Shown here: positions 4,788-27,048 of the stretch, in pieces
How the letters are laid out: each line of letters starts with the position of its first letter
Numbering within the stretch: position 1 is the stretch's first letter
Assembly: GCA_965203355.1 (NCBI GenBank)
Contig: OZ241889.1
Location: 3,264,001-3,328,000 of the forward strand
Length of the DNA stretch: 64,000 nt
Direction: 5' to 3'
DNA from: Candidatus Latescibacterota bacterium
GTDB lineage: Bacteria; Latescibacterota; UBA2968; UBA8231
Translations under genes and position numbers: made by a program
The notes under the pieces: model-generated
Told to the model about the DNA's origin: nothing
Databases searched by the model: none
Seen by the model: only the letters and a program-made list of their open reading frames with translations

Positions 4788-7130
4788 CTAATAAGCCAAG
4801 GCGAGCGGCCGCAAAATCGCCGCGCTACCGCTCGCGGTCCCCGGGTCGATCCGGCAGAGGTACATCCCCGGTAACGCCAACGCGCCGTCCGCAACCCGCC
4901 CGGACCAGCGAAAGTGCCAACGTCCAACGCCCGCACGCCCCGCAAGCTGCGCCACCAACCGACCCGCGACATCGAAAATCTGCACGCGCGGCTGGATGCC
5001 CTCGGCCTTGAAAACCACAAAGCTGATCTCCGCTGCGTCGTTGATCCCATCGCCGTTGGGCGTAAACGCCACCGGCGCAATCTCCACGTCGCCGACGAGC
5101 GCAGACTGGACGGGCAGATCGGGCAACAACACGATATTGGCCCGCCGCGCGCTCGGCACGACCGATTGCCAGATCCCGGGACGCGCACCCAGCCCTAAAT
5201 CGAGCGCGAACAGCGCAGCATTGTCCCAGAGCCGCGCCGTAAAATCCACCTCCACCGAATCGGCGACCACGATGCGCGGCAACAAAACCAACAGGGTATC
5301 GCCGTTTAATCGCACGGCCTCGGGGGCTACCTCCTCCCCGCCGATCCGCAGGGCCACCTGGCCCGTGGTCGCGCCGGGAATGCGCAAGCGCAGGCGGTCG
5401 AAGCCGCTGTCCTGCCCGTCCGTGCTCGACCACAGCGCGTAGGTAAAGCGCGTATCCTCGTTGAGCCGGGCCTGGCGCGGCCAGATTTGCCCCCGCGCCT
5501 CTTGCACCAGCGCGTCGACAAATTCTATCGCCAGCGCCCGGGCAGTCGGCGCGACGTGCGGGGCGTCGGTCGCGAGGATCATCTCCAATTGTACGAAGCG
5601 GCGCGGACTCGCCGACTGGAACACCTCGCCCGAAGCCTGATACACATTGCTCCAAGCGTCCCAATCTTCGCCAACGACCCAAGTCGTATCAATCGGGCCT
5701 TTCAACACCTTGGGCAAGCTGTTCCACTGTTCCTCGGTGACCACATCGCCTTTGCGGTCGGAAAAAGTGTACCTCTCCCGTAGTGCATTGCCCGAGCGCG
5801 AGCGCAGTTGGATGCTAGTCTGCGGCGGCAGCTCGGCATCCCACGTCAGCCGCTCGATCACTTTGGGCCGCCCGTCGCCAGCGGCCGCCGCTACATTGAC
5901 AAAGCCCGAGCGCAGCTCCACCCGCGCCGGGTAGCCCGCCGAAAAGAGCATGGTCTCCAAGCCCCAACCAAAGCCTTGGGCGGTCCCGTCAATCTCGTGC
6001 CACAGCAGATAGCGGACTTTGCGCGGGGCGAATAAGTAGCGCTGATGAAAAATCCGCCCCAAACACTGGGGCCGGCAGCGATCTTCGACGAGCACCTCGT
6101 AATCGACCTGTTCGGGCACGGGCAACCCCGCCCCCGCGGCCGGGCGACCATCGGAAACCAAGAAAAGCCCACCCGCCGCCGAAGGATTGCCGCCTTGAAC
6201 CTGACTGCGCAGTCCCTCGCCTAACTGGCTGAAGTAGATGAAAAGTTCGTCGAGAAAAAACACCGCCCCCAAGTCCACCCGCCACCACACCCCGGCCTCG
6301 CGCCAGCCGCCTTCAGCGCTAGTCAACAGGGCAAAGCTGTCCATGTTGCCATCGAACATCCGGGCCGCGCCCGTGGTGCGGCCTCCCTCGAGAAAGCTGC
6401 CGCCGCGCTCGGCCGTGCCCAAGCTCACGTTATCCCCTACGGCCAGCACCTCGATTTCGGCGAGGGCCGCGTCTGAATGCTGCTCGTCGGCTTCGACGAT
6501 GATGTACTGGATCACCCGATAGCCACGCACGCGCTCCAGGTCCAAAGACGCATCCAACACATACGTGCTGTCCGTGCCCAAATACTCCAACGGAATAACC
6601 AACTCGGTCGCGGTGTTGGGCTTGGACGTGCGATAGATCGCTTCAAACTTGAACACATCGGCGAGCGCTTGGATCCGCGCACCCGAGGAGACAAAGACGC
6701 TAAATTGCCGCAAGGGCCGCGCCCCCTCGCGGTTGGGAAAGACGAGGCGGATTTGGTGTGCCAGCACCGGACGGCCCAAATCGATCTGCACCGACCACTG
6801 GTCGGGCGCGTCGTCGAGATCTGGCTGCCAGTAGGTGGTAAGATCGCCATCGATGACAAAGGCGGCGGTCTGCGGGCTGCTCTTGGCTTCCCAAATCCCG
6901 CCTACGACCTCGCCGCGCTCCTGCGTCGCATGGCGGAAGTCGCCGGCGTTGGCCACGGCGTTGATCTCCTTGCGGAATTTCCGCAGCCGCAGCCCGCCAT
7001 CGGCCCCGATCTGCACCAGATCCGCTGGCATTTGCCACGACTGCCACGCTGCGGCCCGGTCGAAGCGCAGTTCATCGGCCCAGACCGCGCCGATTCCCAA
7101 TAGCAGCGCGTACAACAAGCGCAGCGCCAT
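4788..7130 (-). CDS. Secreted protein with discoidin/F5-8-like modules and a C-terminal FlgD-Ig/CHU_C domain
   Basis: Signal peptide, IDGDLTTYW and VDLG motifs, FTPNGDGIND...IFDVAGRLV...WSG...PGMY tail. Confidence 0.75.
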   Translation of the reverse strand: MALRLLYALLLGIGAVWADELRFDRAAAWQSWQMPADLVQIGADGGLRLRKFRKEINAVANAGDFRHATQERGEVVGGIWEAKSSPQTAAFVIDGDLTTYWQPDLDDAPDQWSVQIDLGRPVLAHQIRLVFPNREGARPLRQFSVFVSSGARIQALADVFKFEAIYRTSKPNTATELVIPLEYLGTDSTYVLDASLDLERVRGYRVIQYIIVEADEQHSDAALAEIEVLAVGDNVSLGTAERGGSFLEGGRTTGAARMFDGNMDSFALLTSAEGGWREAGVWWRVDLGAVFFLDELFIYFSQLGEGLRSQVQGGNPSAAGGLFLVSDGRPAAGAGLPVPEQVDYEVLVEDRCRPQCLGRIFHQRYLFAPRKVRYLLWHEIDGTAQGFGWGLETMLFSAGYPARVELRSGFVNVAAAAGDGRPKVIERLTWDAELPPQTSIQLRSRSGNALRERYTFSDRKGDVVTEEQWNSLPKVLKGPIDTTWVVGEDWDAWSNVYQASGEVFQSASPRRFVQLEMILATDAPHVAPTARALAIEFVDALVQEARGQIWPRQARLNEDTRFTYALWSSTDGQDSGFDRLRLRIPGATTGQVALRIGGEEVAPEAVRLNGDTLLVLLPRIVVADSVEVDFTARLWDNAALFALDLGLGARPGIWQSVVPSARRANIVLLPDLPVQSALVGDVEIAPVAFTPNGDGINDAAEISFVVFKAEGIQPRVQIFDVAGRLVAQLAGRAGVGRWHFRWSGRVADGALALPGMYLCRIDPGTASGSAAILRPLALAY

Positions 7131-12358: not shown

Positions 12359-13476
12359 GGATCTGCATTGACGCGCGATCCCTGCGCGACGTGCCCACCA
12401 GCCTCGGCCGCTACGCCGCCGATCTCGTCAGCCATATCGCCCAATTGGACCGCACAAACGAGTACATCGTCGTCCGGCGGCCCTCGCGGCACGGCCCCAT
12501 CGCCGATCAGGCCAATTTTAGGGAGATTTTCGCCCCACACGACATTGCCTCACCCCACAACATCCTCGCCGGGGCCCGAGTCATCAACGCCCTCGACGCC
12601 GACGTGTACCACGCCCTGTTCCACTTTCTGCCCATCGGCGTACGCGCCCGGCGCGTGGTCATCACCCTGCACGATCTGATCTGGGTCGATCATCCCCACC
12701 TCGCCGATGGCCGACGCTGGCGGCGGTGGGTCAAAGGGTCGCTGGGCCGCTTCGGCATTGGCCGGGCCATGGCAGCCGCCGACCACATAATCGCCGTCTC
12801 CGCCAGTACGCGCCAAGCCGCGATCGACCGCGGCGTCCCCCCCGACAAAGTGACAACCGTTCGCCACGGCGTAGCATCCGCCTGGCACTCGGGCAACTCG
12901 GAGCCAGCCCTGTTTAACACCACCGCTCCAGACCGCATTGACGCGCTTGCAGCGCGGCCGTTTGTCTTTGGCTTGGGCAACAGCTTGCCGTACAAGAACC
13001 TGCCTCGGCTGGTGCACGCCTTTGCCCAAGTCGCCCCGGCCCATCCCGAGCTCGCGCTGGTGTTGGCCGGCCGCGGCGAGGGCCATCCCGCGCTCGTGCG
13101 GCTGGCGCGTCAACTCGGCTTGAGCGACCGGGTGTTCCTCGTCGGCCCGCTCAGCGACGAGCAAATCCGCACCTGTTTTGCCCGCGCCCGCTTTTTCGCC
13201 TTTCCGTCGCTGATAGAAGGATTTGGGCTGCCGGTGCTCGAAGCCATGGCCAGCGGCTGTCCAGTGCTTACGTCGAACCGTTCGTCGCTGGCCGAAATCG
13301 CCGGAGCCGATGCGGTACTCGTGGATCCGCTCGACACCGCGGCCATCGCCGCCGGGATGCAGCGCCTGCTGGCCGATTCCGCGCTCCGCCAACGGCTAGC
13401 TGGCCGAGGACGCCAACGGGCCGCGACCTTCACCTGGGAAGACGCGGCCCAGCAAACCATTCAACTGTACAAGTAA
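12355..13476 (+). CDS. GT4 glycosyltransferase
   Basis: RICIDAR, KNLPRL, FPSLIEGFGLPVLEAMASG. Confidence 0.9.
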   Translation: MRICIDARSLRDVPTSLGRYAADLVSHIAQLDRTNEYIVVRRPSRHGPIADQANFREIFAPHDIASPHNILAGARVINALDADVYHALFHFLPIGVRARRVVITLHDLIWVDHPHLADGRRWRRWVKGSLGRFGIGRAMAAADHIIAVSASTRQAAIDRGVPPDKVTTVRHGVASAWHSGNSEPALFNTTAPDRIDALAARPFVFGLGNSLPYKNLPRLVHAFAQVAPAHPELALVLAGRGEGHPALVRLARQLGLSDRVFLVGPLSDEQIRTCFARARFFAFPSLIEGFGLPVLEAMASGCPVLTSNRSSLAEIAGADAVLVDPLDTAAIAAGMQRLLADSALRQRLAGRGRQRAATFTWEDAAQQTIQLYK

Positions 13477-13663
13477 TTTCGCCGTCGTGCTGCCGCTCCG
13501 CAGGAGAGCGTGGCCCCGGAACACTTGCAAGCGGTCGTTCAAAATAGCATCGGCCAATTTGACCCCTTAATAATAATGCCTATTTATTTTTCTGTCCGCG
13601 CAGACCAAAGCTAAACACGGTCAGCACTGGCGACGCAACTTCGAGTAGAAGGAGAGAACCTCA

Positions 13664-14047
13664 ATGCGACTATTTTTGCTTGTCTCATGCGCTTTAGCCA
13701 ACACCGCATTTGCTCAATTAGACGTAGCCACACATCAGACGACAACGCTACCATCGGACGCACGGTACGAGATTGTACAATCCCAACTGGCAGCGAAATA
13801 TACCTTCCGGTTGGATAGATACACAGGCAAAGTCCATCAGTTGGTCAAGACGGAAAATGACGATTTCGCTTGGGAGGCGATGCTGGTAGAGGGACACGAC
13901 GCATTGTATCCTAAAAGACCCAGATTTGTCATTTTCAGTTCAGGAATTGCCGCACGTTTTACTTTTCTCATGGACTCTGATACAGGACAAACTTGGGTGC
14001 TGGGGGAGTATCTTGAGACGGCTGGATGGTGGAAGTTAAAGAATTAA
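13664..14047 (+). CDS. Hypothetical secreted protein
   Basis: AGGAG RBS, signal peptide, lower GC, two internally similar segments ([10 protein letters not shown] / [10 protein letters not shown]). Confidence 0.7.
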
Positions 14048-14079
14048 TTTTAAAACTGATACACTATCGAGGACCTTTC

Positions 14080-15635
<1,556 letters not shown>

Positions 15636-15639
<4 letters not shown>

Positions 15640-15872
15640 GCATGACAGTCGCTGAATGGATCGAGTTTCTTGGCAGCTATCCATCTGAGTTGCGTGTCGT
15701 GGTGGACGGCTATGAAGATGGTTACGACGATCTATCGCCCGATCGCATGATCATGGAGCAGATCAGCCTCAATACGGGAACGGAGTCTTGGGAGGGCATG
15801 CACGGCGACCCGAAAGCACCAGACGCGGCCAGAATTGTCGACGCACTGATCTTGCGCCGCGCATCCCATTGA
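15636..15872 (+). CDS. Small acidic hypothetical protein
   Basis: ATGA overlap with the hsdM stop; [20 protein letters not shown]. Confidence 0.7.
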
Positions 15873-15891
15873 GCGCGGTAAGGATTGTTGC

Positions 15892-16308
15892 ATGATTGAC
15901 TATGGGAAGTTTCGGTTGTCGCTCAGACGCTTGGCCGAGCAGCATGACAATTATCGGACGCTGGACGAATCCTTGGACGAACTGATCCGCGAGGGAATCG
16001 CCGAATCCGTTATCCAGCGTTTCGAGACCTGCTATGACTGCTTGTGGAAGGTGTTGAAGAGACATCTTAACGAGGAATTGGGTATCGCCGATCTGCCCAA
16101 CAGCCCCAAACCCGTATTCCGCATCGCGCATGAAAACCTGCCGTTCCCGGCACCGCTGGACCAGTGGCTGGGTTACGCCGAGGCGCGTATAAATACGTCG
16201 CACGATTATGATGGCGAGAAAGCCGAGGCCTGTCTGGAACTCGTGCCCGCTTTCATCGCCGACGCCCGCGATCTCTACGAAACCATGAGCGGTGCAACAT
16301 GGCAGTAG
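15892..16308 (+). CDS. HEPN RNase toxin (HI0074 / nucleotidyltransferase substrate-binding family)
   Basis: IQRFE...WKVLK, SPKPVFR, R-x4-H-x-Y motif RINTSHDY. Confidence 0.88.
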   Translation: MIDYGKFRLSLRRLAEQHDNYRTLDESLDELIREGIAESVIQRFETCYDCLWKVLKRHLNEELGIADLPNSPKPVFRIAHENLPFPAPLDQWLGYAEARINTSHDYDGEKAEACLELVPAFIADARDLYETMSGATWQ

Positions 16309-17855
16309 AGCACGCTATCGACCTGTCGGCTAAACAGCGCGAGACGGTCTTAACACTGTTGCAACGCCATCTGCCCGGAACGGCCGCTTGGGTCTATGGC
16401 TCCCGCGCAAAATGGACATCCCGCCCTCATTCCGATCTGGACTTGGTGGTGTTTGCCACGCCCGGCCAGCAGCGTGCCGTGTCCGATCTCCGGGAAGCGT
16501 TTGAGGAAAGCAACTTGCCGTTTCGGGTGGACTTGTTTGTGTGGGACGAAGTGCCGGAATCGTTTCGCAAGCAGATGGAGCGGGAGCATGTGGTGTTGGT
16601 GGAGGAGGGCTATTCTTCGGCCAAATCTCAGACTGCTTCATTGGACGAAATCGCCAAACTTACTTTGAGCAGCGTGGACAAAAAAACCAAACAAGGAGAA
16701 TTCAACGTACTACTCTGCAATTATATGGACGTTTATTCAAGGCGATTTATTCGAGCCGATATTCCGTTCATGGCAGCGACTGCTACCAAGCGGGAGATTG
16801 AACGTTGTAGATTACAAATCGAAGACGTTGTTATCACTAAAGATTCGGAAAAACACGATGATATTGGAGTGCCCGCACTCATTCGTGAGGATGTCGAAGG
16901 GCTTGTGTGTGGTTATCACCTCGCCATTCTTCGTCCATCAAAAGATAAACTTCATGGTCCTTATCTGTACTACGCACTTCAAACAGAAGAGGCCCGGCAC
17001 CAATTCCACTCATACGCCAACGGTGTAACGCGATTCGGTTTGCGTAGAGACGACATTCTTCGCGTCAAGATTCCGCTCCCTCCCCTCCCCGAACAACGCG
17101 CCATCGCCCACATCCTCGGCACACTCGACGACAAAATTGAACTCAACCGGCGGATGAACGAGACGCTAGAGGCGATGGCCCGCGCCTTGTTCAAATCTTG
17201 GTTCGTCGATTTCGATCCCGTCCGCGCCAAAATGGAAGGCCGCGACACCGGATTGCCCCAAGAAATCGCCGATCTGTTTCCCGACCGGCTGGTGGAATCG
17301 GCGTTGGGGGAGATTCCGGAGGGGTGGACAGTCAGGACGTTAGGCGAACTAATCCAACTCAACTATGGCAAATCACTGAGGAAAGACAAGCGTGTACCCG
17401 GGGATTTTCCGGTTTATGGATCGGGCGGAAGCGAGACCACTCATTCGGAGCCGCTGGTTCGACATCCCACCGTGATTGTTGGCCGAAAGGGAACCATAGG
17501 TAGCGTCTTTTGGGCTCCGCACGGGTGTTGGCCCATTGATACCACTTACTTCGTTACGAGCGAGTTGCCCATGGCGTTTGTCTATCGCCTGTTGCAGCAC
17601 CTACCGTTGACCGACATGAATACTGACGCAGCGGTTCCAGGCCTAAACAGATCCAACACATATCGGCTTGAGGTCCCCTATTCCGACATCAAACTGGTGC
17701 ATACATTCGCAGAGTATTCGGACCGGCTACAGTCTCGAATTGACGCGAGCGGGCGTGAGGCAAAATTGTCGGCATACATCCGCGACACCCTCCTCCCCAA
17801 GCTCATCTCCGGCGAAATCCGCGTCCAGTTCGGTTCCGGTCGAGGAGACACCTGA
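16299..17855 (+). CDS. hsdS: Fusion of MNT antitoxin (about aa 1-103) and type I specificity subunit HsdS
   Basis: GSRAKWTSRPHSDLD (GSx10DxD), LPFRVD; then TRD1, PPLPEQRAIAHIL.TLDDKIE, GEIPEGW, TRD2, RDTLLPKLISGE in one frame. Confidence 0.9.
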   Translation: MAVEHAIDLSAKQRETVLTLLQRHLPGTAAWVYGSRAKWTSRPHSDLDLVVFATPGQQRAVSDLREAFEESNLPFRVDLFVWDEVPESFRKQMEREHVVLVEEGYSSAKSQTASLDEIAKLTLSSVDKKTKQGEFNVLLCNYMDVYSRRFIRADIPFMAATATKREIERCRLQIEDVVITKDSEKHDDIGVPALIREDVEGLVCGYHLAILRPSKDKLHGPYLYYALQTEEARHQFHSYANGVTRFGLRRDDILRVKIPLPPLPEQRAIAHILGTLDDKIELNRRMNETLEAMARALFKSWFVDFDPVRAKMEGRDTGLPQEIADLFPDRLVESALGEIPEGWTVRTLGELIQLNYGKSLRKDKRVPGDFPVYGSGGSETTHSEPLVRHPTVIVGRKGTIGSVFWAPHGCWPIDTTYFVTSELPMAFVYRLLQHLPLTDMNTDAAVPGLNRSNTYRLEVPYSDIKLVHTFAEYSDRLQSRIDASGREAKLSAYIRDTLLPKLISGEIRVQFGSGRGDT

Positions 17856-19594
17856 TGCTCACCAGACTCACCGCGCGCAATTTCAAACGCTTTGCAGAAG
17901 TCGAAGTCGAATTGGGCAACCCGGTCGTGTTCATCGGTCCGAACAACTCAGGCAAGACTTCGGCCATGCAGGCGCTGGCCCTGTGGGACCTCGGCGTAAA
18001 GCGATGGAACGAGAAGCGCGCCGGCAAGAGCGCCCCAGAAAAACGCCCCGGCGTGACAGTCAATCGCCGGGACCTGTTCGCTATCCCCCATCCGAGCGCC
18101 GCACACTTGTGGAACGACTTGCATGTGCGGAATGTTCAGCGAATCAATGGCAAGCAGCAGACGAACAATGTGCGGATCGACCTCATCGTCGAGGGAATCA
18201 ACGAAGGCAAGGCCTGGCAGTGCGGCCTGGAGTTCGACTACGCCAACGAGGAATCGTTCTACTGTCGCCCCTTGCGGCTCGACGAAGGCAAGCCCCGCAA
18301 GAGAATGCCCATCCCGCACGAAGCCGGCTCCGTCCGCGTTGCCTTTCTCCCCCCCATGTCCGGCCTTGCCGCCACCGAAACCCGGCTCGACGGAGGCGCT
18401 CTTAACGTGAGAATTGGCGAAGGCCGCACGGCCGAGGTCCTCCGCAACTTGTGCTTCCGCATCGTGGAAAAGAACCCCGATCAGTGGAACGCATTAGTGG
18501 AGCGGATGGAGTTCCTCTTCGGAGTAGAACTCGACAAACCCCGCTATGTGGAGCAGCGGGGCGAGATCGCGATGGGGTATCGAGAACGCGGCTCGGTCGC
18601 GCTCGACCTCTCGTCGAGCGGGCGCGGATTGCAACAGACGCTGCTGATTCTCGCCTACATGTACGCCAATCCCGGCGCAGTCATCCTGCTCGACGAACCC
18701 GACGCACATCTCGAAATCCTGCGCCAGCGCCAGATCTACAACCTGATAACCGAAGTCGCCAAAGACAGCGGCAATCAGATCATCGCGGCAAGCCATTCGG
18801 AAGTGCTCCTGAACGAGGCCGCCGACAAGGACCTCGTCATCGCCTTCGTCGGCCGTCCGCACCGGATCGGAGACGAACAAAGCCAAGTGCGCAAGGCACT
18901 GGCCGAAATCGGATTCGATCAGTACTACCAAGCCGAACAGACCGGCTGGGTGCTCTACCTCGAAGGCGCGACCGATCTGGCGATCTTGCGGGCCTTCGCC
19001 AGACGCCTCGGCAAGGACGCGGCCTGTCGGGCTTTGGAAAGGCCCTTTGTGCATTATGTCGGGAATCAGCCTGTGGCCGCTGCGCGTCACTTCCACGGCC
19101 TCAGAGAAGCAAGCCGCCATCTCAAGGGCATTGCGCTTTTCGATCACCTAGAAAGCGGCATACCGGACAACCCGTCTTTCCCGCACCTACTCTGGAAACG
19201 GCGAGAGATCGAAAACTATCTGTGTACGGAATCAACGCTCGAAAACTACGTGCGCACCTCCGCGACAGCCGCAGAACCATTGCCTCTGTTCGCGCCGGCG
19301 GAAGTCGAAAGGCGGCTGACCGCCATGCGGGCGGCAATCCGCGAGGTCAGCGAAGCACTGGACAGATTGGGCAAGGGGTCGCCTTGGGACGCTGGCTTTA
19401 AGGCGAGCGATGAATTCCTGAAGCCGCTTTTTCGGTCCTACTTCCTGAAGCTCGGCATACCCAATCTCATGGCGAAGAAGCATTTCCACGAACTGGCCGA
19501 CTGCGTCCCAGCCAGCGAGATCGACCCCGAAATTGGCGAGAAACTGGACGCCATTGCTGCCGTCGCCGAGCGGGCCGCGCCGTTTGCACCGTGA
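17855..19594 (+). CDS. ABC-ATPase plus TOPRIM nuclease (OLD-like)
   Basis: Walker A GPNNSGKT, SSGRG, LLDEPDAHL, H-loop ASHS; TOPRIM LYLEGATD, LFD, REIENYL. Confidence 0.85.
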   Translation: MLTRLTARNFKRFAEVEVELGNPVVFIGPNNSGKTSAMQALALWDLGVKRWNEKRAGKSAPEKRPGVTVNRRDLFAIPHPSAAHLWNDLHVRNVQRINGKQQTNNVRIDLIVEGINEGKAWQCGLEFDYANEESFYCRPLRLDEGKPRKRMPIPHEAGSVRVAFLPPMSGLAATETRLDGGALNVRIGEGRTAEVLRNLCFRIVEKNPDQWNALVERMEFLFGVELDKPRYVEQRGEIAMGYRERGSVALDLSSSGRGLQQTLLILAYMYANPGAVILLDEPDAHLEILRQRQIYNLITEVAKDSGNQIIAASHSEVLLNEAADKDLVIAFVGRPHRIGDEQSQVRKALAEIGFDQYYQAEQTGWVLYLEGATDLAILRAFARRLGKDAACRALERPFVHYVGNQPVAAARHFHGLREASRHLKGIALFDHLESGIPDNPSFPHLLWKRREIENYLCTESTLENYVRTSATAAEPLPLFAPAEVERRLTAMRAAIREVSEALDRLGKGSPWDAGFKASDEFLKPLFRSYFLKLGIPNLMAKKHFHELADCVPASEIDPEIGEKLDAIAAVAERAAPFAP

Positions 19595-19691
19595 CCCGCT
19601 TTAGCGAATCAACCCTCGGCAGGCACACCCCCCCGGACACGCCGGGCGCGAGGCGACGTGTGCGACCTTTTGAAACGTACGGAGGCATAAG

Positions 19692-20963
19692 ATGAACAAG
19701 ACATCTCCGCCCAGTACTGCGCCATCGCGCATCGAACGCCTCAAGGTGAGGAATTTCCGCGCACTGCGCGAGGTCGAGCTAAAAAACCTGACGCCGCTTA
19801 CCGTGCTGCTCGGTCCAAACGGCAGCGGAAAATCCACAGTGTTCGACGTGTTCGCCTTTCTCGCCGAATGCTTCGAGAGCGGTTTGCGCCGGGCCTGGGA
19901 AAAACGCGGGCGGGCGCGGGAGTTGAAATCGCGCGGCGGAGCGGGACCCATCCTGATCGAGCTCGCCTACCGCGAACAAGAGAACAAGCCCCTGATCACC
20001 TATCACCTCGAATTGGACGAGAGAAACGGGCGACCCGTTGTCGTGCGGGAATGGCTCCAATGGAGGCGAGGGAGCTATGGAGCACCCTTCCGCTTTCTCG
20101 ACTACGCCAATGGCACCGGGCGCGTCGTTTCGGGCGAACTGCCGGACGCGCAGGACAAGCGAATTGACGTTCCCTTGAGTTCTTCCGACACGCTCGCAGT
20201 CAACGCGCTCGGCCAGTTGGCCGAGAATCCCCGCGTCGTCGCCCTGCGCAATTTCATCATGGGCTGGCATGTGTCCTATCTCTCTTCCGAGGATGCGAGG
20301 GGACAGCCCGAAGTAGGGCCGCAGGAACGCCTGAGCAAGACCGGCGACAACCTCGCCAACGTGATCCAGCACCTGTCCGAAGAGCATCCCGAACGCCTGC
20401 AATCCATTTTCGGCCAGCTCCGGGAAAGGGTTCCCAAGATCGAGAAAGTGACGGCGGATCCAATGCCGGACGGCAGGCTGCTGCTGCAAATCAAGGACGC
20501 CCCGTTTGCCAAGCCGGTCATGGCCCGTTTCGCATCCGACGGTACGATCAAGATGCTCGCCTATCTGACCTTGCTGCACGACCCGGTTCCGCCTCCGTTT
20601 ATCGGCATTGAGGAGCCGGAAAACTTCCTGCATCCTCGCCTGCTGTACGGGCTGGCCGAGGAATGCCGAGAGGCGACCGGGGCCACGCAAATCCTCGTAA
20701 CCACGCATTCGCCGTTCTTCCTCAACGCGCTGCGGCCCCGTGAAGTGCGGGTACTGTGGCGCGACGAATTCGGCTACACCCGGTGTCACTCGCTGGATCA
20801 AAACGAAAAGGTCAAGGCGTTCATGGACGCCGGTGCTCAACTGGGCGACCTCTGGATGGAGGGGCATTTTGAGGTGGGAGACCCGCTGACTGCCGGCGGC
20901 ATGCCAATAGAGGTGCAGGGCACGGGTGCCATAACGGCGGCGCGAGAAGAAAGCGGTACCTGA
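19692..20963 (+). CDS. AAA_21 ABC-type ATPase (defence-associated)
   Basis: [12 protein letters not shown] signature, [15 protein letters not shown]. Confidence 0.9.
19726..19801 (+). repeat. 76-bp segment duplicated at 21035-21110
   Basis: cgcgcatcgaacgcctcaaggtg...gacgccgcttac; 2 mismatches between copies. Confidence 0.9.
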
Positions 20964-20964
20964 T

Positions 20965-21189
20965 ATGCCCGCCTCCCATCTCGAGTTTCACGTGGAAGAA
21001 CGTTCCATGGAAGCATTTCTCACCGCCTGGTTGCCGCGCATCGAACGCCTCAAGGTGCGGAATTTCCGCGCACGGCGCGAGGTCGAGCTAAAAAACCTGA
21101 CGCCGCTTACAACAGGCGGTGCAAGCAGCCGCATGAGCTGCGTACATCATAGTCTTGCGTACCTTAGCGTACGCAAGCGAGGGTACTAA
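20965..21189 (+). pseudogene. Truncated DUF4276-like TOPRIM gene fused to a duplicated ATPase fragment
   Basis: HLEFHVEERSMEAFL start typical of AAA_21 partners, then [10 protein letters not shown]..., copied from the upstream gene. Confidence 0.7.
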
Positions 21190-21192
21190 CCC

Positions 21193-22932
21193 ATGACGAT
21201 CAGCGACGAGGACATTCGCCGACAGTTGCGGTTGGGTGAAGATAGCCGCTGGGAATTCAAGCAGATCGAATTCAACGGCGACACCCCCACCAGCCCCCGC
21301 CGAGACGATCTGGCCGATGAACTGGCCGCGTTCGCCAACGCGAATGGGGGCGTGCTCCTGTGCGGCGTATCCGACGACGGACGAGTCAAGGGCATGTCCC
21401 GAAAACAAATAGAAGCGCTCGACCGCCTGTTGGTGGAAGTCAGCACCGACGCCATCGAACCCGCTCTCCGCATCCAAGTTTACCATCGGGAGCTCGATAA
21501 AAGAGCCTTCGTGCTCGCGGAAGTGCCGCGAGGCGACGCTGTTTACGAACGGGACGGGCGCGCGTTCATCCGGGTTGGTTCAACCAAGCGCCGCCTTGAA
21601 GGCAACGAACGCCTGCGGCTGGCACAGAACCGCGCCCAGAGCCGCTATTTGTGGTTCGACAAGCAGGTCGTGCCGCAGACGGGCTTCGAGACGTTTAGCG
21701 AGCGTCTGTGGGAACCGCTGCTCAGCGTGTCTGGAGCGACGGACCCTCGCCGGGGATTGCTGAACCTTCGCCTGTTGGCGCAGGATGAAGCCGGTGTGGT
21801 CCGAGCAACGGTTGCCGGCGTATTGCTTTGTGCCCAGTCGCCGCAAGAATGGTTGCCGCAAGCCACCATTGTGGCAACACACTATCGTGGAGCCGATCGG
21901 GCCTCCGGTCAGTTGGACGCACAGGAAATTGTCGGGCCATTACCCGCCCAGATCACCGACGCGGTGAAGTTCGTCGCACGCAATATGCGCGTTGCTGCGC
22001 GCAAGGTGCCGCAACGCGAGGACCTGCCCCAGTATAGTACAGCCGCGGTGTTTGAAGCGGTAGTGAACGCAGTTGCACACCGCGACTACTCCATGTCCTC
22101 ACGGCGGATCAGACTTTCGATGTTTAAGGACCGCCTCGAGATCGACTCGCCCGGTCAACTTCCCAATGGCATGACCCTAGAAGGCATGGAAGTAAGCCAA
22201 GCCACCCGCAACGAAGTGATCGCTTCCGTATTCGGCAGAATTCCCGTTGGCGAGGTGCCCGGATCAAACCATCGCCGGTACTTGATGGAACGTCGGGGAG
22301 ACGGGGTCTCGATCATCCACAAGGAGACCCGGGAAACCGCCGGTGTCCGGCCGGCATACAAAGTCGTTGACGCATCCAACGTCGTGCTGAGCATCCCCGC
22401 TGCCAAACTCGAACTCACCCCCGCCGACGCAACGGTCGCGGTCCACTCCAAAGGAGTGCCTCTACCCGGAGTCGAGGTTTTGGCCCTCTTTCCGAACAAG
22501 ACGTGGCAGCGGTCCACTACCGACGAGGCTGGCGAAGCAGCCCTTGAGCTGCATACGACGCATCTGCCGATGACCGTTTACGCGGCGGCTCCGGGGTATG
22601 CGGCGGGGCTTGAACGGGAGTGGAGTCCGCACAAGGGCGGTCTGCGGCTGGAACTCGGGCCGCTCCCGGCCGGAGGTGCGGCCATATTCCCCCAAGCCAC
22701 CGGGCACCTCCCCGGCCTGCGCGGGCGGCTAAACCCAATACGCGATACGTCCGACCGGACTTATCTGTACGCAGACAATATCGCCATTGAGGAGGGCCGA
22801 CAGCAGCCGGTGCCTTTTCGGCTCGGCAAGGCAATGCAGCTTACGGACGCTTATGGTGCTGAATTGTCGATAACCATCATTGACATCGTCGGACATTCCG
22901 CATTGGTGGAATATCGGTCGCTCAAGCCATGA
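21193..22932 (+). CDS. Schlafen/AlbA_2 + RecG_C/HATPase_c_4 protein with a beta-rich C-terminal extension
   Basis: [40 protein letters not shown]. Confidence 0.85.
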
Positions 22933-23071
22933 GGCGGTTGTTTGCAGTGCTGGGGATCGGGCTGCCCGGTTTGTCGCCGAGCGCAGAGGCGGGAATGGTC
23001 CCCACCGCGTCCATTCGCAAGCACGTTCCGCACGTGGCCGCGCTTCCTCGGCTGCAACCCAAAGGTTAGAC

Positions 23072-26209
<3,138 letters not shown>

Positions 26210-26244
26210 CGCCAGCGCGATCACACCCCAAAGAAAGGAATCCC

Positions 26245-27048
26245 ATGCGCGTCATTCTCTTTGTCATCGACGGACTGCGGCCCGACGGTCTCCAACAGGC
26301 CGCCACCCCCTGCATGGACCGCTTAATCCGCCAAGGAGCCAGCACCTATACCGCCCGCACGGTGATGCCTTCGGCCACCTTGCCCTGCCACACCTCCATG
26401 TTTCGCGGCGTTCCCCCACAGCGGCACGGCATCATCACCAACACCTATGTGCCCCAAGTCAGACCCGTGCCCAGCCTAGTCGACGTGCTGCACCAAGCGG
26501 GCAAGCGCACGGCGTTCTTCTACAACTGGGAGCCATTGCGCGATCTGGCGGACCCAGGCTCGCTGGACCGCTCGTACTATATGAACAACTGCCACGAGCC
26601 AGATGGCGATGGGGAACTGGCCCGTTTGGCCGCGGCGACGCTGCGCCAATGGACGCCCGATTTCGCCTTTGTCTATCTAGGCGGCACCGATGTAGCAGGG
26701 CACGACCACGGCTGGATGTCGGCCCAATATCTGGCCGCTGTTGGGCGGGCCGATGCGGCCATTGGCGCGGTGTTGGCAGCGGTTGACCCCGCCGAGACCA
26801 CCGTCATCGTCACCAGCGATCACGGCGGGCACGAGCGCACCCACGGCACGGAAATGGACGAGGACATGACCATTCCATGGGTGATCGCCGGGCCGCCAGT
26901 ACCCACCGGGCGGCCCTTGCAAGAGCCGGTGAACATCATCGACAACCCGACGACCATTGCCGCTTTGCTCGCCGTGGCACCGGCGCGGGACTGGGCCGGA
27001 CGAGTCGTGCGGGAAGCCATAAGCGGCGACAGCCGTCAACGAACTTGA
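26245..27048 (+). CDS. Alkaline phosphatase superfamily phosphodiesterase
   Basis: IDGLRPD, PSATLPCH, DVAGH, TSDHGG. Confidence 0.85.
   Translation: MRVILFVIDGLRPDGLQQAATPCMDRLIRQGASTYTARTVMPSATLPCHTSMFRGVPPQRHGIITNTYVPQVRPVPSLVDVLHQAGKRTAFFYNWEPLRDLADPGSLDRSYYMNNCHEPDGDGELARLAAATLRQWTPDFAFVYLGGTDVAGHDHGWMSAQYLAAVGRADAAIGAVLAAVDPAETTVIVTSDHGGHERTHGTEMDEDMTIPWVIAGPPVPTGRPLQEPVNIIDNPTTIAALLAVAPARDWAGRVVREAISGDSRQRT

Follow-up and report, generated by a model that had tools for sequence, protein, structure and literature searches.

A type I restriction-modification (R-M) operon of a Candidatus Latescibacterota bacterium (assembly GCA_965203355.1, contig OZ241889.1, positions 3,264,001 to 3,328,000 of the forward strand; this stretch of 64,000 nucleotides (nt) is hereafter the window, and coordinates are counted from its first letter) encodes a specificity subunit, HsdS, whose N-terminus carries a Pol-beta-type minimal nucleotidyltransferase (MNT) domain in the same reading frame, directly after an overlapping gene for a HEPN protein of the HI0074 family. 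The fused layout is real and widespread, and apparently undescribed. We read it, with a probability of roughly 0.6, as a class I toxin-antitoxin (TA) pair of the HepT/MntA kind (type VII), of the HI0073/HI0074 subfamily and in reversed gene order, in which the AMPylating antitoxin would be tethered to HsdS inside a type I R-M operon. Class I pairs consist of a PF01934 or PF08780 HEPN protein with an RX4HXY motif next to an MNT with GSX10DXD (PMC7641770). The two overlapping genes and their parts are the following:

15892 to 16308, plus strand: gene for the HEPN protein, the putative toxin, of the HI0074 / NTase_sub_bind family, 138 amino acids (aa) (PF08780, E 3e-19)
16186 to 16209, plus strand: predicted RNase motif RINTSHDY, R99-x4-H104-x-Y106, with Tyr106 as putative AMP acceptor (read from the sequence)
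16299 to 17855, plus strand: MNT-HsdS fusion, one open reading frame (ORF) of 518 aa (ORF list, Pfam, PADLOC, AlphaFold2, Foldseek)
16299 to 16607, plus strand: MNT domain, aa 1-103 (PF18765, PF01909)
16398 to 16442, plus strand: MNT catalytic motif G34-S35-x10-D46-x-D48, GSRAKWTSRPHSDLD (read from the sequence)
16605 to 16622, plus strand: linker, aa 103-108 (pLDDT, the predicted local distance difference test, below 50)
16632 to 17075, plus strand: first target recognition domain (TRD1) of HsdS, aa 112-259 (Pfam, PADLOC, AlphaFold2)
17085 to 17207, plus strand: HsdS central conserved helix, aa 263-303 (AlphaFold2 model)
17289 to 17681, plus strand: second target recognition domain (TRD2) of HsdS, aa 331-461 (Pfam, PADLOC, AlphaFold2)
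17688 to 17810, plus strand: HsdS C-terminal conserved helix, aa 464-504 (alignment and AlphaFold2)

An earlier note, made from the letters of this DNA, had described a HEPN gene with RINTSHDY overlapping a single 518-aa ORF, in which an MNT with GSx10DxD precedes a complete HsdS with two TRDs. Every detail of this anatomy proved correct in domain searches, at the level of the motifs and in the AlphaFold2 model. The ATG of the fusion (16299) sits 10 nt inside the HEPN frame, an overlap of 10 nt. In the fusion protein, Pfam places Polbeta (PF18765) over aa 20-102 (E 7.5e-10) and also detects NTP_transf_2 (PF01909; E 2.4e-5); the match to the MntA_antitoxin model NF047752 falls below the cut-off. 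As in class I antitoxins, an MNT of the PF01909 clan with GSX10DXD adjoins a HEPN protein, but the class I layout of a small free antitoxin encoded upstream of its toxin is absent, the MNT being aa 1-103 of HsdS and lying downstream of HEPN, here as in all 21 fused loci described below. The remainder of the protein is an HsdS with two TRDs: Methylase_S (PF01420) matches two stretches (E 7e-24), nearly the whole length of the PADLOC Specificity_I models is covered by aa 111-510, and the central and C-terminal conserved helices are present according to Pfam, PADLOC, AlphaFold2 and Foldseek.

From 92 fused homologues, AlphaFold2 built a model (mean pLDDT 92.6; predicted template modelling score 0.76) in which the MNT (aa 11-101) is followed by six residues whose pLDDT falls below 50 (aa 103-108) and then by an HsdS of canonical form, with both TRDs and a pair of long helices; this linker of about six residues is predicted to be flexible. 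By sequence, the nearest solved relative of the MNT is HI0073 (1NO5, E 9e-16) and that of the HsdS part is 1YF2. A Foldseek search with the model retrieved 1YDX (E 3e-21) and 1YF2 (E 4e-20) for the HsdS part; for the MNT part it retrieved HI0073 (1NO5; root-mean-square deviation 1.7 Å over 98 columns, 38% identity), the Legionella MNT structures 8XEO and 8XEH (target-normalised template modelling scores of 0.79-0.83) and the MntA structures 7BXO and 6M6U. In the alignment of fused homologues the central helix of HsdS is the most conserved block, and G34, S35, R36, S45, D46 and D48 of the MNT are invariant in 92 of 92 proteins. We also considered a separate internal start for HsdS. The stretch GGAGGAGGG lies at 16601-16609, but the next in-frame start, the TTG at 16641, is about 31 nt away, and an independent start of HsdS is therefore not apparent from the sequence.

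The only domain that Pfam finds in the HEPN protein is NTase_sub_bind (PF08780; E 3e-19). The NCBIfam model TIGR01987, for HI0074, matches below its cut-off, and no PADLOC model matches. Its nearest solved structure is HI0074 itself (1JOG, E 4e-7), in which RNITSHTY aligns with RINTSHDY. A PF08780 HEPN protein with RX4HXY (aa 99-106) corresponds to the HepT side of a class I pair. When the window protein was aligned with 20 partner HEPN proteins of fused loci (locus L079 was left out), the invariant columns were F44, L59, R99, H104, Y106 and A111, and all but one of the 21 fused loci have an intact Rx4HxY.

The junction near 16600 and the linkage to HI0074-type genes, both singled out in the earlier note, hold up. 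A public Logan contig from run X1 (237 nt, 0 differences) covers 16575-16811, junction included; the comparison with public runs was made with such contigs. Since X1 may be the source sample, the conserved architecture elsewhere is a stronger argument than the contig against an assembly artefact. We reject the artefact on both grounds, the exact contig across the junction and the same architecture in more than 100 independent proteins, and the clusters of fused proteins, more than 100 in number, together with the 21 of 21 fused loci linked to HEPN likewise rule out a one-off fusion. When the whole protein was searched, 107 of the best 120 homologues, among them the window's own protein, had GSx8-14DxD near the N-terminus; the other 13 comprise ten plain HsdS proteins (407-431 aa), one that starts inside the MNT (P0067) and two with a degenerate or doubled MNT (P0052, P0098). 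A search with the MNT alone (105 aa against 1.84 billion cluster representatives at 50% identity) gave 3260 matches at E <= 1e-3 and 122 at E <= 1e-30. HsdS is present in 112 of the 150 best representatives (109 MNT-HsdS and three MNT-MNT-HsdS), so that this MNT clade is predominantly fused to HsdS, although the share is inflated by contig truncation and search bias. Another 32 of the 150 are MNT only; many of these have 140-260 aa and end in TRD-like sequence, and are probably truncated fusions, and about seven are of 125 aa or less.

At the level of loci, we scanned species-representative GTDB genomes with patterns from the HsdS central region (586 of 587 matched stretches were confirmed), kept the best 80 loci and scored their ORFs with the window proteins and then with hidden Markov models rebuilt from the first matches. 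MNT and HsdS share one reading frame in 21 of the 80, a figure that is not a prevalence, as the loci were ranked by similarity to a fused query; an HI0074-type HEPN ORF lies immediately upstream in 21 of the 21. In 20 of these, the stop of HEPN and the chosen start of the fusion overlap; in L002 a gap of 35 nt follows a shortened HEPN. The fused loci belong to at least nine phyla (Binatota, Chloroflexota, Actinomycetota, Myxococcota, Acidobacteriota, Pseudomonadota, Thermodesulfobacteriota, Rhodothermota and Latescibacterota). A cultured example is found in RefSeq, on plasmid pZMOB01 of Zymomonas mobilis ATCC 10988, where a gene of the HI0074 family shares 4 nt with the next gene, whose product, a 'restriction endonuclease subunit S' of 527 aa, has an N-terminal MNT (GSRARWTAKDYSDLD); hsdR follows.

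Some loci and homologues depart from this simple layout. Some fused loci have a second HEPN/MNT set upstream: in L033 (positions 5775-6519) there is a separate HEPN, with RNDTAHDD and hence without the Tyr, and a free MNT; in L071 (6183-6992) there are an MNT and a HEPN in one stop-to-stop frame; L079 (6692-7306) has two tandem MNT domains before HsdS and a HEPN that has lost the His, and the MNT-MNT-HsdS order recurs in homologues P0007, P0008 and P0098. Triple HEPN-MNT-HsdS fusions are rare: HEPN and Methylase_S occur together in four of 16 longer HEPN relatives, three of them on one contig of 5.67 Mb. One protein of 534 aa (P0284) joins N6_Mtase (PF02384) to an HI0074-type HEPN; this apparent HsdM-HEPN fusion may be a frameshift artefact.

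The junction between MNT and HsdS is a place of exchange. In 217 fused proteins, the stretch between the end of the MNT and the central region of HsdS falls into 13 sequence clusters (152, 27, 10 and 6 members, and smaller ones); there are at least 13 TRD1 families, the first search having favoured the window's own TRD1. Public metagenome contigs show such replacements at the nucleotide level. A contig of run X5 follows the window over 15800-16604, continues with 451 other letters and rejoins it over 17074-17172, with HEPN and MNT kept and TRD1 swapped; contigs of X1 and X4 jump from 16600 to 17082, and in further contigs a variant MNT end is joined to the TRD1 of the window at 16608. The contigs thus leave the window sequence at 16600-16608, where the linker lies, and rejoin it at 17074-17082, so that the exchange of TRD1 uses the 3' end of the MNT and the conserved centre of HsdS as its recombination anchors. 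The G+C content of TRD1 in the window (0.43-0.45) is below that of its flanks.

The fused state itself has also changed. We built a maximum-likelihood tree of 31 MNT domains, 22 fused and nine free, from matches of at least 80 aa and with E no weaker than 1e-8. Parsimony requires five changes between fused and free on it, of which well-supported branches force at least three. In a region of poor resolution, the MNT of L015, a free one, stands amid the fused ones of L002, L003 and L080, and the fused MNT of L005 lies in a deeply separate clade. This interleaving of fused and free MNTs, together with the number of TRD1 families, indicates that the junction is evolutionarily labile. A plasmid of Acetobacter ascendens shows an intermediate form, in which HEPN is followed by an MNT of 100 aa and, beyond a single stop and four more codons, by HsdS, without a change of frame. 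Free HEPN-then-MNT pairs occupy the interval between hsdM and hsdS in L015, L024 and L062. In L043 (42-669) a separate MNT overlaps hsdS by ATGA, and a VapC/PIN-like gene and a small upstream ORF stand in place of HEPN. As judged from translations, which is also how the VapC/PIN-like gene of L043 was read, L007 (1685-2274) has a MazF-like gene in the type I operon, and L017 (3241-4099) and L062 (9311-9983) have canonical pairs of an MNT followed by a DUF86 HEPN with RX4HXY elsewhere in their operons.

With the motifs of class I present on both sides, we read the two genes as a type VII TA pair with its antitoxin tethered to HsdS; the HepT/MntA assignment in the earlier note agrees with the published definition of the class (PMC7641770). 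In the characterised system, the RNase HepT is neutralised by MntA, which through GSX10DXD attaches three AMPs to the Tyr in HepT's RX4HXY motif (Yao et al., 2020, PMC7641770), and in a Legionella HEPN-MNT pair Tyr105 is AMPylated (PMC11586414). By analogy, hsdM, the small ORF that follows it (orf78), the HEPN gene and the MNT-hsdS fusion would be co-transcribed, and the overlapping stop and start would couple translation of HEPN and the fusion. The HEPN protein, probably as a dimer, would be an RNase using R99 and H104; the MNT domain, with ATP and through G34-S35 and D46-x-D48, would AMPylate Tyr106 and silence the toxin, and each M2S1 or R2M2S1 complex would carry one antitoxin domain. As the MNT is joined to HsdS, the supply of antitoxin would equal that of HsdS and depend on expression and integrity of hsdS; if hsdS were lost, truncated or replaced by an allele lacking the MNT, the antitoxin would go and the upstream toxin gene would stay. 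Recombination anchored in the 3' end of the MNT and in the central conserved region would leave TRD1 cassettes exchangeable. It is a reasonable inference that the tether would make the specificity gene addictive.

Several points weigh against this reading. For the fused form we infer RNase toxicity, AMPylation, complex formation and any trigger from homology and conservation. The HEPN-first order is the reverse of that of the characterised pairs, and the MNT is almost always 5' in HEPN/MNT pairs (Anantharaman et al., 2013, PMC3710099). In the Legionella HEPN the RNase site is the Mg2+ site and the RX4H residues are not catalytic (PMC11586414), so that the motif alone is no proof of an RNase mechanism. 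D78 of the fusion, the probable third metal ligand, is D in 71 and E in eight of the 92 aligned fused proteins, but Q in 12. The HEPN of L079, a locus with two MNT domains, reads RNLLSLTY, with the motif His replaced by Leu, and two of the triple fusions read RTGTAHDH, with the Tyr replaced by His. Some unfused MNT genes beside hsdS or hsdM have no HI0074-type HEPN (the VapC-like neighbour in L043 and the MazF-like one in L007). It is also not obvious how a toxin that is already AMPylated would be re-activated on loss of the antitoxin.

The earlier note had gone further and proposed a guard on the type I complex, in which the MNT antitoxin would work, or stay near the toxin, only in an intact complex, and Ocr, ArdA, Stp-like proteins or damage would release the HEPN RNase in a second-line abortive response akin to that of PrrC/EcoprrI; we consider this unlikely. 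In a version that we hold equally doubtful, the MNT would act as an integrity sensor and keep new HEPN protein AMPylated only in assembled, unoccupied M2S1 or R2M2S1, and DNA mimics, proteolysis of HsdS or replacement of hsdS would unleash the RNase and abort the infection. HEPN nucleases embedded in R-M loci have been proposed to act as a second line, and PrrC does so (PMC3710099, PMC12707154); a guard would also suit a fusion that arose or was lost several times (at least three forced changes in the tree, with the divergent MNT of L005 fused as well) and that has been retained in many phyla and with at least 13 TRD1 families, as expected under selection for a physical link over adjacency, beside a HEPN motif intact in 20 of 21 loci. 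The present results, however, contain no sign of sensing. The tether is dispensable in close relatives, where free MNTs occupy the same slot (L015, L024, L062 and, with its one in-frame stop, the Acetobacter plasmid), the short linker has a prediction of flexibility, and no MNT-HsdS interface was derived from the model. An enzymatic antitoxin, moreover, would leave the toxin covalently silenced, so that inhibiting the complex alone would free no existing toxin. Other kinds of TA are lodged in related type I operons, and the two ABC-ATPases of the same operon, one with a weak AriA-like and the other with a strong HEC-01A match, are alternative candidates for a second layer. Thus, the anatomy and the HepT/MntA kind stand, whereas a release of the toxin tied to R-M integrity or to Ocr, ArdA or Stp found no specific support, and the need for a tether is weakened by the free MNTs, the interleaved tree, the other TA kinds and the flexible linker; the idea of a guard on R-M integrity is neither supported nor excluded.

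Slightly less probable than a guard is that the pair is ordinary mobile TA cargo 5' of hsdS, a self-contained TA or abortive-infection unit whose tether would have no function beyond co-inheritance. Where an MNT stop and an hsdS start are adjacent or overlap, loss of the stop would fuse the genes easily and gain of a stop would split them again; the Acetobacter plasmid, the ATGA overlap in L043 and the five parsimony changes among 31 MNT rows are of the kind expected. Cargo of other types is at hand in the type I operons of the same sample of loci, which hold DUF86-type MntA-HepT (L017, L062), a VapBC-like pair (L043) and a MazF-like gene (L007), and defence or TA cargo embedded in R-M operons has been described (Payne et al., preprint 10.1101/2024.01.29.577857). 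Nevertheless, the fused state dominates the MNT clade (112 of 150 against about seven clear stand-alone forms) and persists through the turnover of TRD1, which, even with the count inflated, exceeds what a neutral, reversible accident would give. Far more improbable is that HEPN and MNT are no TA pair but a two-subunit nucleotidyltransferase that HsdS would have recruited and whose substrate would be DNA, a phage component or a subunit of the R-M system. The Pfam name of the HEPN family, 'nucleotidyltransferase substrate binding protein', recalls such a function, which early analyses left open (Makarova et al., 2009, PMC2701414), but later work identified pairs with these motifs as a toxin and an AMPylating antitoxin (PMC7641770, PMC11586414), and the invariance of R99, H104 and Y106 in the partner HEPN proteins fits AMPylation directed at the pair itself. 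A type VII pair with its antitoxin tethered to HsdS therefore remains our preferred reading.

The closest solved relatives of both halves of this pair, HI0073 and HI0074 of Haemophilus influenzae (1NO5, 1JOG), are two free proteins. HI0073, the MNT, presumably precedes HI0074, to judge by gene number, and we know of no link of either to HsdS. With the HepT/MntA pair SO_3166/SO_3165 of Shewanella (PMC7641770), the genes described here have in common an RX4HXY HEPN beside a GSX10DXD MNT, and PF08780/PF01909 pairs are explicitly included in class I. They differ in that the toxin comes first, the antitoxin forms the N-terminal part of an HsdS of 518 aa instead of being a free protein of less than 150 aa, and the HEPN is of the HI0074 (PF08780) and not the DUF86 type. 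The Legionella pneumophila HEPN-MNT pair (8XEH, 8XEO; PMC11586414) shares the MNT fold and the class RX4HXY Tyr, which is AMPylated there, but is a free pair with a Mg2+ site as its RNase site. In the single-chain MNT-HEPN protein FhepTA (NAR 2026, PMC13000451), which is regulated by oligoAMPylation, an MNT is likewise covalently fused to another protein; there, however, the partner is its own toxin, whereas here it is an unrelated R-M subunit and the toxin is separate. With the guardians of type I restriction, PrrC/EcoprrI and PARIS, the common element is a HEPN-type RNase gene, here a predicted one, placed within an hsd operon of type I; for many HEPN families such a second-line role has been proposed. 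PrrC is, however, an ABC-ATPase-HEPN fusion kept latent by contact with EcoprrI, whereas the 138-aa HEPN protein of the window has no ABC-ATPase N-domain and would have a dedicated enzymatic antitoxin.

Several elements of this picture are already known: HEPN/MNT pairs and how they work by AMPylation, the presence of HEPN genes in R-M operons, and the embedding of cargo in type I operons. For the MNT-HsdS fusion we found no description in full-text literature searches, nor in the available text of the HEPN census (PMC3710099), the Makarova surveys (PMC3632139, PMC2701414), a 2026 BREX survey (PMC12839542), a 2025 EcoSal review (PMC12707154), the Payne preprint and PMC13000451; supplementary tables lay outside the search and may list the architecture. 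Public annotation gives 'restriction endonuclease subunit S' only, which hides the antitoxin domain from surveys of TA and defence genes. To our knowledge, type VII is the most abundant predicted class of TA and its triggers are unknown. Type I restriction is a classic target of phage anti-restriction proteins. An enzymatic antitoxin that is covalently part of an R-M specificity subunit, in many phyla and with cultured examples, offers a concrete and testable link between TA and R-M. If the tether is functional, it would be a novel means of guarding an immune gene or of rendering it addictive; if it has no function, it would be a clean example of how adjacency and overlapping stops and starts generate multi-domain defence proteins. 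Were the integrity-sensor version true, a clade of more than 100 protein clusters in at least nine phyla would represent a PrrC-like guardian built from a type VII TA pair.

The other genes of the operon in the window are the following:

14026 to 15639, plus strand: hsdM, type I methyltransferase subunit (N6_Mtase, E 9e-107; HsdM_N, E 3e-28)
15636 to 15872, plus strand: orf78, a small acidic ORF of 78 codons between hsdM and the HEPN gene
17855 to 19594, plus strand: ABC-type ATPase gene, 579 aa (AAA_21/AAA_15)
19692 to 20963, plus strand: second ABC-type ATPase gene, 423 aa, with a HEC-01A match (PADLOC)
21193 to 22932, plus strand: Schlafen/AlbA_2-HATPase_c_4 gene, 579 aa (profile match)
22880 to 26209, plus strand: hsdR, type I restriction subunit (HSDR_N, SWI2_SNF2 and T1RH-like_C, E 1e-45 to 2e-130)

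The type I specificity gene is thus encoded alongside hsdM and hsdR, and hsdM, the HEPN gene, the fusion and hsdR all lie on the plus strand. The true start of hsdM is probably an internal ATG, giving MAHKK..., about 18 codons in, and the listed hsdR ORF begins too early, its domains starting from about aa 67 (about 23066-26209). A scan of 13400-26600 for promoters and terminators found sites no commoner than in shuffled sequence (3 versus 3.0; 15 versus 12.5). The stop of hsdM overlaps the start of orf78, which has no match in Pfam, NCBIfam or PADLOC; in the ESM atlas it falls only into unnamed clusters, the best of which are mostly viral. Relatives of orf78 occupy the same slot in eight of the 21 fused loci and in two unfused ones (L018, L059).

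Downstream, the first ABC-ATPase gene (17855-19594) starts 1 nt inside the hsdS stop codon. PADLOC matches its product weakly to NsnB, AriA and AriAB (E 1e-22 to 1e-15), and close relatives lie directly 3' of hsdS in L035 and L040; the gene may be a PARIS-like or OLD-like second-line module. The 423-aa gene (19692-20963) is a full-length match to HEC-01A in PADLOC (E 1e-157). It is followed by an ORF of 74 codons (20965-21189) that begins like HEC-01B and continues as a copy of the 5' end of HEC-01A: 76 nt at 21035-21110 form a direct copy, 97% identical to 19726-19801. The run of a HEC-01B-like start into the HEC-01A copy suggests that the TOPRIM partner gene was truncated by duplication or recombination. 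The gene with Schlafen/AlbA_2 and HATPase_c_4 domains immediately precedes hsdR, and the two ORFs as listed overlap; the type I operons of L002, L033, L071, L077 and L079 contain close relatives, with E values down to 1e-304.

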